The position numbers were made by a program, and so were the translations under genes. This document shows positions 1,703-60,403 of a stretch of 64,000 nucleotides of DNA, in pieces. Origin of the DNA: Eledone cirrhosa (lineage: Eukaryota). Location: the NCBI GenBank assembly GCA_964016885.1, contig OZ024753.1, positions 19,096,001 through 19,160,000 of the forward strand, written 5' to 3'. Under the pieces are notes generated by a model. That model saw nothing but the letters and a program-made list of their open reading frames with translations. It had not been told where the DNA came from and made no database searches. The first letter of the stretch is position 1, and every line of letters begins with the position of its first letter.

Positions 1703-2037
1703 TACAATATTAAATAAATGGAAAACTATATTTATAAAACCATATTTATTTCATTATATATATTTTGGGGATATCATATTAACAATATGCTATGCCTTCA
1801 TCAGACAAAATACAATATAAACAGTTTTATAGATAAATCTATAAAATGCTAGAGTAAACCTCTTCAAATGAAGTTGATGTTTATTACGGTATGTCGAATA
1901 TATTTATCTATAAAACTGTTTATATTGTATTTTGTCTGATGAAGACATAGCATATTGTTAATATGATATCCCCGAAATATATATAATGAAATAAATATGG
2001 TTTTATAAATATAGTTTTCCATTTATTTAATATTGTA
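1703..2037. repeat. Inverted repeat of PLE pLTR-like 3' ends (arms 1703-1838 / 1902-2037)
   Basis: Arms are reverse complements with a few mismatches. (TA)n lies on both sides. Homologous to 60165-60288. Confidence 0.85.
1928..1993 (+). ncRNA. Type I hammerhead motif with degenerate stem II
   Basis: TATTTTGT-CTGATGA-...-GAAA-TATATA-TA-ATGAAATA. The minus-strand twin at ~1746-1812 has GAAA changed to AAAA. Confidence 0.5.
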
Positions 2038-2733
2038 TATATATATATATATATATATATATATATATATATATATATATATATATATATATATATATAT
2101 ATATATATATGTATATATATATATATATATATATATACATATATATACACACATATACATACAGGTACACATACATATATGCACATATCAGTTTAGCGGA
2201 CGCTTATTATAACGCCGCTTTTTTGTAAACAAACTGAACAGCCTGAATTTGTATGCCGTACGGTGTGAAGGCAACCACGTTACCTTTTTGTTCAACACTG
2301 ACACAGGAACGATGTACTAGTTTCAAGCTTGTTAGCTATCATCAGCACCGTATACCCATCTGCCAGATAGTTGAACGTTCGAATGTATGTATATGTGTGT
2401 ATATATATGTATATATATATATATATATGTATATATATATGCATGCTACTGTACGTCTGTATACATATATGTATGTACGTATACACACATACTTACATAT
2501 ATATATATATATATATATATATATATATATATATATATATATATATATATATATATATATATATATGTATATGTATGTATATATAAGAATTAAGATACTA
2601 GAGTGTGTTGGAGTTAAACACCCTCTTCATATTATAGAAATGACAGTATAGGATATAGCTCAATGTAATTAAACAGAGCCGAAGAATTATAAAAAATAAA
2701 CCAAAGAAGCCTTCAATACATCAAAACTCTTTA

Positions 2734-2776
2734 TTAGCCAACAATGTTTCGTCCTATTAAGGACTCATCAGGGCAA
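2734..2776 (-). ncRNA. Minimal type I hammerhead ribozyme
   Basis: Minus strand: GCC-CTGATGA-GTCC-TTAATA-GGAC-GAAAC-ATT-GTT-GGC, followed by AATAAA. Confidence 0.8.
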
Positions 2777-4149
2777 GTAAAGCTACAAGAAGCACTATCG
2801 GCCAATACAAGCCAAACACTCAGAAGAATATGGAGTATACATCTATTAAAGCTTAGGAAAGATATCAAGGAAAAGTTGTCTAAGATTAAGAGTGAGCAGT
2901 TACAAACATAGATATGGACCAAATAGCAAGGAATTGATTAACACGTTGAACCCACACTGCAAATATTGTATAATGCAAAAACTTGAAACACAAATGGTAA
3001 TATAATGCGAGTATAATATAATATAATAGATGGTGATAATAAAAAGCTTAATATATGTATATATATACATACATCTCTATACATATACATATTAGTACAA
3101 ATACAAACTAAAACTTATTAAGTATTTAAATATATATATATATATTGTTTACAGTATAATATAATAAAGATAAAAATAAAAATAAAATATAATATGTAAT
3201 TCCCTGTCAGTGTGCATAAACAATATAGAAACATTATAATAACATTATAATAACAATATTATAATATATTGGCATCAAAAGATATACAAAATTACATCAT
3301 ACATATAATTTAAGGTTAACAAATAGTATAAAGTTTTACACAGGGTAAGACAAAATCACATAGAAATAAATTGTGTTGAAAAAATTGTGTTGAAAAAATA
3401 TCTATACCATTGTAACAAATACACGGAGGTCAAGTCATTTTACATTGGCATAAATATTACCAAAATATCACAAAATATTACAAAATATATTTACGTGGTT
3501 GACATACAGACATATATTAATGAAATTACATGGCCAGACAAACAGCGTGTGGTAGTAAAAATAAATAAAATAAACGGAAGATCGAAAAACAAAAACAAGT
3601 ATATTTACTTAGGTGTCACAAGCGGTTAACTAAAAGAAAAAAGATAGAAATGTAGACCAGAGAGTTGACTAGAAAAACCTTTTTAAATTAATTAATATTA
3701 AAAGTATTTAAAATACATATTTAGTCATTTGAAAATTGGCTATTGTTTAAGTCATCATCACCGTATAAGTTTAAGATATCTCAATAAAATTATCAAGAAT
3801 AGAGTAAAATATGCTTCGTTCAGTCGAATGACGTTATCAAATAAAAGGACTCTAAATAGAACTATGGTAGACCAATGTGAACAGAAAGAAGAGAGGTTAT
3901 GGAGGATAGGAAGGAGCATAAAATTTAAATCAATATATTATATAATATCATAAAAAAAGCATAAAGGTGAAATTTATATATAGTGTAATAGAAGGGGCGG
4001 AAATTAAGTGTGTAGAGGAGGAGGTACATTAGTTGAATGAGACTCCAACCAAAGTATTTAATAAGATATAAACACATAAGGTGTTAGTAGTGAAACAATA
4101 ATAATGCTTAAGACGATAGATAAGGTATGTATGTATATATATATATATA

Positions 4150-4535
4150 TATTAATAAAAGGAATTCCAACTTTGTCTGATTTACTCGTTTTATTTACAA
4201 TCCTTTAAAATTGATGATGGTATTAGAATGAAATATTATGGTAGAATATTAAATGTTAAGTGTTAATTGAACAAGTATTTTCATGCTTTCGCAATCTTCA
4301 GGTTCATAATGTGTGGGGACAGTCAAGTTTACAATGTTCAACTGTGAGAATTGCAAACCTGACTGTCACCACACATTATGAACCTGAAGATTGCGAAAGC
4401 ATGAGAGTACTTGTACAATTAACACTTAACATTTGATATTCTACCATAGTATTTCATTCTAATAACATTATACATTTTAAAGGATTGTAAATAAAACGAG
4501 TAAATCAGACAAAGTTAGAATTCCATTTATTAATA
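4150..4535. repeat. Inverted repeat (arms ~4150-4335 / 4350-4535) in (TA)n
   Basis: Reverse-complement arms with a short spacer and scattered substitutions. Each arm carries an HHR motif. Confidence 0.9.
4268..4306 (-). ncRNA. Minimal type I hammerhead motif (twin at 4379-4417 +)
   Basis: Two-arm consensus: TGAAC-CTGAAGA-T-TGC-GAAA-GCA-T-GAAA-GTAC-TT-GTTCA. The arms carry different substitutions. Confidence 0.65.
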
Positions 4536-59900: not shown

Positions 59901-59951
59901 TAAAATATAGTTTAAATTTATAGGATGAAGTTGAAGGAATTCAGAATAACA
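56937..59951. repeat. Long direct repeats (56937-57650 / 59139-59951) around a non-coding interior
   Basis: The repeats align apart from indels. The interior has a ~258-bp tandem duplication (57825-58330) and a GC hairpin at 58947-58995. Confidence 0.75.
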
Positions 59952-60183
59952 TTATTTTAATAAGTCATAGTGTTAAGGACAATTAGAAAAAAGTCGGATA
60001 TTTCTCCACGTTTTTTATTTCTCTCTCCGTCTTTTTCTTTCTCTCCGTCTTTTTTCTAATTGTCCTTAACACTATGACTTATTAAAATAATATAAACAAC
60101 TCACTATCCAGATGGCCTCCAAAAATAATGGTTACATTTTAAAAGGGTACGTCAAAGCTTATTTGTAAAACTGTTATATATTG

Positions 60184-60248
60184 TATTTCGTCTGATGAAG
60201 TCATACCATAATTTAATTTGTTATGCCTGAAATATGTATAATGAAATA
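60184..60248 (+). ncRNA. Type I hammerhead ribozyme (1.9-kb family)
   Basis: TATTTCGT-CTGATGA-AGTCATA..TATGCCT-GAAA-T-ATGT-A-TA-ATGAAATA. 8-bp stem I. Confidence 0.75.
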
Positions 60249-60403
60249 AATATGGTTTTATAAATATAGTTTCCATCTATTAATATCGTATATATATATA
60301 TATATATATATATATATATATATATATATATATATATATATATATATATATATATATATATATATGTATATATATATATATATATGTATATATATATATA
60401 TAT

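Follow-up and report, generated by a model that had tools for sequence, protein, structure and literature searches.

Head-to-head inverted pseudo-long terminal repeats (pLTRs), a tail on one side only and palindromes at the junction were already described for Penelope-like elements (PLEs) in Arkhipova 2013 (PMC3846280), which terms the head-to-head form 'most frequently observed'. In the portions available, Craig 2021 (PMC8557442) describes the inverted pLTR and one-sided tail again, names the origin of these repeats and tails as an unsolved question, and reports that almost all families of the Hydra clade insert in (TA)n, with a CxCx5C linker tied to (TA)n targeting. PMC8969392 lists inverted pLTRs as a curation feature in its available text. 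Here we describe a 64-kb window of the Eledone cirrhosa genome (assembly GCA_964016885.1, contig OZ024753.1, positions 19,096,001 to 19,160,000) in which such cassettes recur. They join, head to head, the 3' ends of two 5'-truncated copies of Penelope-like retrotransposons that have Hydra-clade motifs. The architecture is already described and the element families are new; the novelty that an earlier note on this window had seen in head-to-head insertion as the main mode was overstated. The window has a G+C content of 34%, perfect (TA)n tracts of at least 10 bp make up 7.3% of it, and decayed retroelements are abundant.

Inverted pairs were located by self-comparison of the window, and all insert counts refer to these 64 kb, with PLE-marked inserts tallied by hand. 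A PLE mark is either a type-I hammerhead motif or a reverse transcriptase (RT) or GIY-YIG endonuclease (EN) fragment with Hydra-clade motifs. All nine inverted pairs listed in the earlier note are present at their positions, with arms 88-100% alike (Table 1). The arms are mostly unequal at the centre and are separated by spacers of 1-300 bp. Seven of the nine palindromes carry PLE marks; those at 4150 and 42367 carry neither kind, and they are putative members with presumed orientation. The cassette at 51559-55386, absent from that note, is a textbook case of the canonical PLE insertion form. The family B cassette is nested inside the central TA of the outer cassette at 1411-2498. Over and above the PLE-marked inserts, the window has four palindromes free of PLE marks.

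The PLE-marked inserts (~19) comprise eight same-family pairs, one old non-overlapping inversion, three cross-family candidates and seven unpaired ends. Pairing, which to the earlier note looked like the dominant insertion mode, is the commonest form here (8-9 of ~19) and not the sole one. The old inversion, a family D pair at 33752-34061 with barely overlapping arms, resembles an L1 twin-priming inversion. Retroelements other than PLEs that sit in these TA tracts show no pairing (0 of 6 SINE-like copies, 0 of 1 RTE fragment).

In most cassettes one arm is set off from its TA tract by additional element sequence of 46-90 nt (~278 nt in 21515-25839). The earlier coordinates gave the inverted pairs correctly and left out this tail. 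Across the nine listed sites and 51559-55386, eight have exactly one tailed arm, 4152-4533 is symmetric and 32873-33649 could not be scored, so that the one-tail rule applies to 8 of 9 resolved sites (p=0.02 against an independent 50:50 choice). Within families A, C and D, different copies share both this tail and a shorter internal end, which marks the tail as element sequence. Each family has two discrete 3' ends, a full tail end and an internal end, and a cassette usually has one of each. The extension of 21515-25839 abuts (TA)n and is the deepest part of its family in sequencing reads.

Hammerhead calls come from our own pattern scans, scored against shuffled sequence, and denote putative motifs known from sequence alone. 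Perfect-core type-I hammerheads number 12 in the window against 0-2 per shuffle (10 shuffles). A looser scan finds 15 against 0-3 (20 shuffles), and 14 of the 15 have (TA)n within 211 nt downstream. These would be minimal hammerheads with a palindromic helix III, a type covered in the available part of Cervera and de la Pena 2014 (PMC4209133). Outward-pointing hammerhead tails, as the earlier note had them, are seen at six of the nine sites (1703, 27146, 32874, 35822, 48630 and 56037), whereas 21515 has a degenerate motif only, located in its left extension, and 4150 and 42367 have none that convinces. An Rfam search returned no hammerhead at gathering thresholds and, in E-value mode, none among the 150 of 371 matches listed, which include hairpin and microsatellite matches instead. 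A degenerate-core scan (23-24 against 3-14 in shuffles) is too noisy for motif calls, and a scan for U3-A8 replacing C3-G8 (3 against 0-4) is not above background; such hammerhead-like motifs lie at 5003-5039 (-) and ~5970-6005 (+). Minimum free energy folding of 13 motif regions gave four with z < -2, most being no better than shuffles, and is not used as support.

The association with TA repeats is well above chance, as had been proposed. Of 18 arm ends, 10 are no more than 30 bp from a (TA)n of at least five units (background 2.8%) and 16 no more than 120 bp (background 10%). TA repeats on both flanks are the usual state; the cassette at 32874 departs from it, with TA adjoining one side only and the nearest TA on the other side 465 bp away.

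Four public runs from one organism, which may be E. cirrhosa itself or a relative of it (word share 0.23), were mapped on 21520-25600. The reads are reduced-representation and start at one restriction site, and partner ends and flanks lie outside, so they give no fraction. At least 10 of 43 joints (among the 15 listed) are same-strand jumps from the left arm at 21594-22029 to the right arm at 25234-25472. Such jumps are the centre junctions of other head-to-head copies of the family. Two samples share nine of these junctions at identical positions in their raw reads, and one occurs in a third sample's contigs. Because junctions of the same type are shared by raw reads of two other samples, the head-to-head geometry is not an assembly artefact. 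The junctions have 0-4 shared letters or short inserts. A fuller table holds 13 distinct junctions, six of them with an arm that measures just 80-228 nt from the tail end. The arm-hopping joints 22116/25466 and 23198/23440 were left out of the count, as were three opposite-strand joints of ambiguous direction. Read depth is 3'-skewed, at 186,514 at the 3' end and ~1,400-17,000 in the open reading frame (ORF), and a loose read end at 21525 consists of (TA)n. The segment 24464-25422 was considered as a foreign insertion, an idea rejected because its read cover matches that of the remaining family sequence and loose read ends at 22151 continue into it.

Related layouts occur in metagenomes. Among 77 loci, which were chosen for full ORFs on short-read contigs and so give no frequency, 13 have an inverted repeat, 32 a direct repeat and 34 at least (TA)4; eight were inspected closely. 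Contigs L076 (169-2453) and L009 (703-904) carry an inverted pLTR with one tail, and L040 and L069 carry full tandem copies of related elements.

We consider it probable that the cassettes arise by two-ended priming at nuclease-cut (TA)n, from two start sites on the element RNA, with the truncated cDNAs end-joined. The element's own GIY-YIG nuclease would cut both strands of a (TA)n tract, and each freed 3' end would prime reverse transcription of element RNA. The tail end would be the start of one cDNA; the other would begin 46-90 nt inward, at a TA-like word that could pair with a (TA)n primer. Host end-joining would then connect the two short cDNAs at the centre, sometimes with short snap-back synthesis. 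Snap-back synthesis during end-joining is a polymerase-theta-like habit. Both ends may read two RNAs or one, the latter by twin priming with strand displacement; to our knowledge PLE RTs lack RNase H, so that one RNA could be read twice.

The orientation fits two-ended priming in all seven PLE-marked listed sites and in 51559-55386. As the earlier note had argued, 3' ends point outward and 5' truncations meet centrally, as expected of priming from both ends of one cut. In 51559-55386 (144 nt tailed, 3.7 kb untailed) and in the cassettes at 1703 and 56037, neither arm includes the whole of the other, so two priming events are needed there. In 21515-25839 the tailed left arm lacks, at 22143-22154, a 960-bp segment carried by the other arm and by the family, with TAGAAA microhomology at its bounds. 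A biochemical precedent is the PAc protein, which cuts and extends both strands in vitro and is predicted to form a dimer (Frangieh 2024, PMC11167929, available part). The one-tail rule, the shared read junctions, the (TA)n preference of Hydra families and the unpaired state of non-PLE retroelements also favour the model.

A bolder version, which we hold only tentatively and with considerable doubt, is that the Hydra-PLE complex primes both (TA)n break ends by rule, once from the tail and once internally at a TA-like site, and is able to take up two different RNAs, even across families. If so, inverted pLTRs would be what two-ended priming ordinarily yields, and the candidate chimeras at 4839-6225, 44580-45947 and 56643-60288 would prove it directly. 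The last of these is a candidate cross-family pair: a 48-bp inverted piece (59951-59998) connects the family B end with an unrelated repeat at 56643-59955. That repeat consists of two ~720-820-bp direct repeats (92-94% alike) around a 1.5-kb middle, and neither ORF nor hammerhead was found in it. At 44580-45947, the 3' untranslated region (UTR) of the ORF piece is weakly C-like (1 and 6 of 300 shuffles in the likeness test), and its assignment to family D was dropped for that reason. The two ends of 4839-6225 have no mutual likeness, and the left-pointing one bears a hammerhead-like U3-A8 motif (5039, -).

Palindromic inserts could also form if the 3' end of a single cDNA snapped back at a short palindrome and was copied as DNA into a mirror arm, which we regard as unlikely. 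A kindred self-priming idea, placed on an antisense template, appears in Arkhipova 2013 (PMC3846280), which saw the same junction palindromes. The perfect centre at 42596 with its 1-nt loop, the 28-bp palindrome at 56183-56210 and the 10-bp-arm hairpin at 1825-1846 suit such folding back. So does the closeness of arms within cassettes of families B, C and D (98.5, 100 and 97.7%) compared with that between copies (90, 83 and 70%), although in family A identity within cassettes is not clearly above that between them. Also in its favour, the arms of 21515-25839 share 11 distinct letters mostly absent from the reads (13 of 27 rows, two pairs being double-counted); the other 14 rows are arm-specific. 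Against it, folding back needs one arm to contain the other, a condition violated at 51559, 1703 and 56037, the tailed arm there being the shorter at the centre. Nor does it account for why different copies end at one shared internal site, and 10 of 13 junction windows lack a long palindrome.

Several observations nevertheless weigh against two-ended priming. PAc belongs to a Poseidon element, not to Hydra, and the available part of Frangieh 2024 (PMC11167929) draws no connection between its findings and inverted copies. Among the joints listed, no read or contig spans the window's own 21515 junction. Three of 13 junction windows hold long palindromes at the centre (10, 14 and 48 bp; background 0.5%), which fit folding back equally; we read them as snap-back synthesis during end-joining, and they support both. 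In 27147-27979 and, apart from the 960-bp deletion, in 21515-25839 the tailed arm is also the longer at the centre, as folding back allows. In the 21515 ORF, the two arms have diverged in an apparently neutral way (dN/dS 0.60, p=0.16), which does not show two source lineages. Internal ends often lie at TA-like words, which derive from alignment ends biased toward such matches. Seven PLE ends are unpaired. Target-site duplications are unreadable in (TA)n, so that a nuclease cut and a spontaneous break are indistinguishable by sequence.

The earlier note had proposed the latter, with (TA)n breaking spontaneously by cruciform cleavage and PLE ribonucleoproteins merely patching both ends. TA repeats are break hotspots repaired through microhomology in human cells (PMC13645644, available part), and three TA-centred flank inversions, two of them without a recognised element, suggest free 3' ends in the tracts. 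The three cross-family candidates would also suit passive patching, but they may be nested or neighbouring insertions. Moreover, the elements have an intact-looking nuclease domain of their own, with a linker that across clades accompanies (TA)n targeting. The SINE-like and RTE copies of these tracts are unpaired, patching gives no reason for the one-tail rule, and nothing connects the cassettes with spontaneous breaks. We find this version improbable and did not keep it. Two independent opposite insertions in one TA hotspot, later joined by deletion or homogenised by gene conversion, would draw on the common nesting in TA tracts (as at 1411-2498) and on the unpaired ends. They would require the same family twice, 3' ends always outward, one tail, no central TA and arms up to 100% alike, and the read junctions are direct; we judge such an origin highly improbable. 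We give almost no credence to an assembly or library artefact from amplification chimeras or hairpin reads. The lack of a listed read or contig over the 21515 junction would fit it, but arms differ by up to 12%, unequal ends are family-conserved, the shared read junctions recur at identical places, and similar layouts exist in the unrelated contigs L076 and L009. Two-ended priming thus remains our best model.

ORF pieces lie at nine places in the window, including the cassettes at 21515, 32873 and 51559. The reference frame at 62467-63999 combines YRDD, thumb and EN in one frame, as expected of an EN+ PLE. Its homologs at E<=0.001 number 197, of which one bears the name GIY-YIG endonuclease and many are ~700-aa single ORFs; a Pfam search of six PLE pieces gave no match. 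The CxCx5C linker before GIY-YIG is whole in three of five aligned pieces, while the piece at 53740 lacks the spacer and that at 45076 the first C. There is no CCHH, the cysteine pair being absent between the GIY- and YIG-like strands. CxxC is present in all three pieces reaching that far and CxH in two of them, around conserved E and N. Among six full-length homologs fetched, five have DKT and three RWK; the window copies are truncated 5' before these motifs. A putative hammerhead in the terminal repeat, 5' truncation, inverted pLTRs and a one-sided tail are features of EN+ PLEs, and the CxCx5C linker, CxxC/CxH without CCHH and (TA)n insertion are those of Hydra. By protein motifs, rather than by RT-tree placement, the elements are new families of Hydra type. 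Neptune, Nematis and Naiad were ruled out, as their CCHH and CX2-5CxxC linker (and, for Naiad, N-terminal EN) are not found here. A reading as miniature inverted-repeat transposable elements (MITEs) was rejected, since ends are unequal and centres vary in families A-D and in the reads, instead of fixed terminal inverted repeats and uniform length. Non-LTR retrozymes were rejected as well: they form tandem arrays of hammerhead monomers, the cassettes are inverted pairs, and the sole two-unit direct repeat lies at 55463-55965. Asparagine-rich inserts occur in the Hydra ORF linkers at 23700-23900 and 53500-53760, as in rotifer Penelopes (Arkhipova 2013). About 50 nt past the ORF stop, the copy at 62377-63999 has an (A)40 run and short TA, with no hammerhead found behind, and may derive from a polyadenylated transcript.

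Table 1. Features of the 64-kb window (positions within it). Family A includes the cassettes at 51559 and 56037, B the cassette at 1703 and the 3' end at 60044, C the cassette at 27147 and the end at 45530, and D the cassette at 48572 and the old pair at 33752-34061. HHR, putative hammerhead motif with strand.
Feature	Coordinates	Strand	Arm identity	Layout	Marks and flanks
Family B cassette	1616..2035		142/146	tail 1616-1702; left arm 1703-1842 (-); spacer 1843-1897, of which 1859-1897 aligns with the 60116-60286 copy; right arm 1898-2035 (+, untailed)	HHR 1936(+), mutated copy 1804(-); hairpin with 10-bp arms at centre end of left arm; (TA)n on both flanks
Palindrome	4152..4533		181/196 (92%)	14-bp spacer; both arms untailed	no ORF; sole hammerhead-like string non-canonical (4301, -); both flanks TA-rich
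Large cassette	21515..25839		95% across 1031 bp, 90-94% across outer 380 bp	left arm (-) 21515-~23415 with 278-nt 3' extension; right arm (+) 23434-25835	left: degenerate HHR ~21700-21760, ORF piece 22325-23442; right: EN ORF 23431-24301, family segment 24464-25422
Family C cassette	27147..27979		237/240 (pair at 27146); arms 231/231	left arm 27147-27377 untailed; right arm 27678-27908 plus tail to 27979; spacer part 27475-27677 belongs to right arm	HHRs 27204(-), 27851(+)
Cassette	32873..33649		230/259 plus 24-bp indel (88%)	spacer with left-arm EN C-terminal fragment 33093-33370 (-); right arm extends ~85 nt into (CT)n	HHR 32929(-); TA on left only
Cassette	35750..36566		294/321	tail 35750-35815; left arm; microsatellite centre; right arm ending 36566	HHRs 35898(-), 36486(+); TA on both flanks
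Near-perfect palindrome	42310..42830		237/248	left tail 42310-~42363; 1-nt centre 42596	neither hammerhead nor ORF found; TA on both flanks
Family D cassette	48572..49166		256/262	tail 48572-48629 (recurs at 43977-44025); left arm; 18-bp centre; right arm untailed	HHR 48816(-), mutated 48983(+)
Family A cassette	51559..55386			inverted tailed end 51559-51702 (144 nt); 3.7-kb RT-EN copy (+), 5'-truncated, end untailed	broken ORF 51676-54156; TA on both flanks
Family A cassette	56037..56399		93/100	left arm 56037-56199 untailed; 28-bp palindrome 56183-56210 at centre; right arm 56211-56309 plus tail to 56399	HHR 56129(-)
Further palindrome	41231..41647		151/151	tandem copy 41994-42174	neither HHR nor ORF found; TA left only
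Outer cassette	1411..2498			58-bp arms 1470-1527, 2441-2498; left tail ~56 nt	no HHR of its own
Family B 3' end	60044..60288	+		untailed	HHR 60192; adjoins TA
Candidate cross-subfamily pair	44580..45947			Hydra ORF piece 44835-45501 (-); family C end 45530-45947 (+, untailed); <=30 bp apart	
Candidate cross-family pair	4839..6225			left-pointing end; right-pointing Hydra EN piece 5147-5581 plus UTR	between TA tracts
Hydra-type RT-thumb-linker-EN frame	62467..63999	-		stop-free, 511 aa, runs off window	family protein reference
Unpaired PLE ends	2148-2382, 2586-4133, 34217-34415, 43971-44330, 46142-46260, 48379-48554, 55440-55965				
SINE-like family, young	1-359, 541-945, 1142-1297, 11119-11505, 15809-16213, 26534-26826		88-96% between copies	single	

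The young SINE-like copies each end in TA/TATG repeats. A second, older SINE-like family (73-86% alike) lies outside TA tracts, at 31641-31858, 37257-37359, 37761-37945, 38198-38419, 38864-38968 and 47946-48167. Decayed LINE-type elements occupy 6658-10350, 12610-15573, 17976-21126, 30875-31729 and 42861-43477; a TA tract terminates three of these and a (CTT)n one. Minisatellite arrays with 48-bp and 57-bp units lie at 46707-47244 and 29400-29823, and the sole N gap in the window, a 200-N scaffold gap, at 17086-17285. Three of 93 TA-rich tracts are at the centre of short flank inversions, two of the three without a recognised element. These inverted duplications (50768-50913, 42159-42210 and 46014-46141; arms of 26-31 bp), whose geometry is the reverse of that of the cassettes, resemble products of snap-back at a TA end. 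An RTE 3' end takes part in the one at 46014-46141.

A literature search covering few subscription journals and no supplements found no paper linking the one-tail rule to two-ended priming or cruciform breaks, and inverted copies are not treated in PMC12910113 or in a retrozyme preprint. A genome dense in short Hydra cassettes makes the origin of PLE inverted repeats and tails countable, through the one-tail rule, the arm-subset relation and cross-family pairs. Such palindromes should also not be annotated as MITEs, microRNA precursors or assembly errors; many sub-threshold Rfam microRNA matches occur in the window (among the 150 of 371 listed).

MITEs and other non-autonomous DNA transposons likewise form short palindromic inserts with TA flanks. 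The cassettes differ from them in their variable centres and arm lengths, in unequal ends owing to the tail, and in arms that are 3' ends of RT-encoding elements. In L1 twin priming, both target strands prime cDNA, and the inversion junction shows microhomology between non-overlapping halves of one RNA; the halves seen here overlap instead, forming palindromes. The closest match is the Hydra clade as characterised in the available part of Craig 2021 (PMC8557442), with RT followed by a C-terminal GIY-YIG EN, the CxCx5C linker, no CCHH, CxxC/CxH around conserved E and N, 3'-end hammerheads and (TA)n targets, and the closest full-length homologs are ~700-aa single ORFs, with DKT in five and RWK in three of six. 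Our elements are distinguished by being new families, by asparagine-rich inserts before the EN and by many inserts of just 150-250-nt arms. Their tails of 46-90 nt (278 nt once) compare with 30-40 nt given for PLEs. The canonical PLE insertion of Arkhipova 2013 (PMC3846280) shares the head-to-head arrangement, the tail on one inverted pLTR and the junction palindromes; here, by contrast, ~10 such insertions of at least eight families crowd into 64 kb, inside (TA)n and mostly without a direct upstream pLTR. The recurrent tail and internal ends match the two RT start sites bracketing the tail in PAc, the Poseidon protein of Anolis, which also cuts and extends both strands and has AT-rich targets, according to the available part of Frangieh 2024 (PMC11167929). 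In the same source, PAc needs no homology with the cleaved DNA to begin synthesis; the internal ends described here, by contrast, often coincide with TA-like words.

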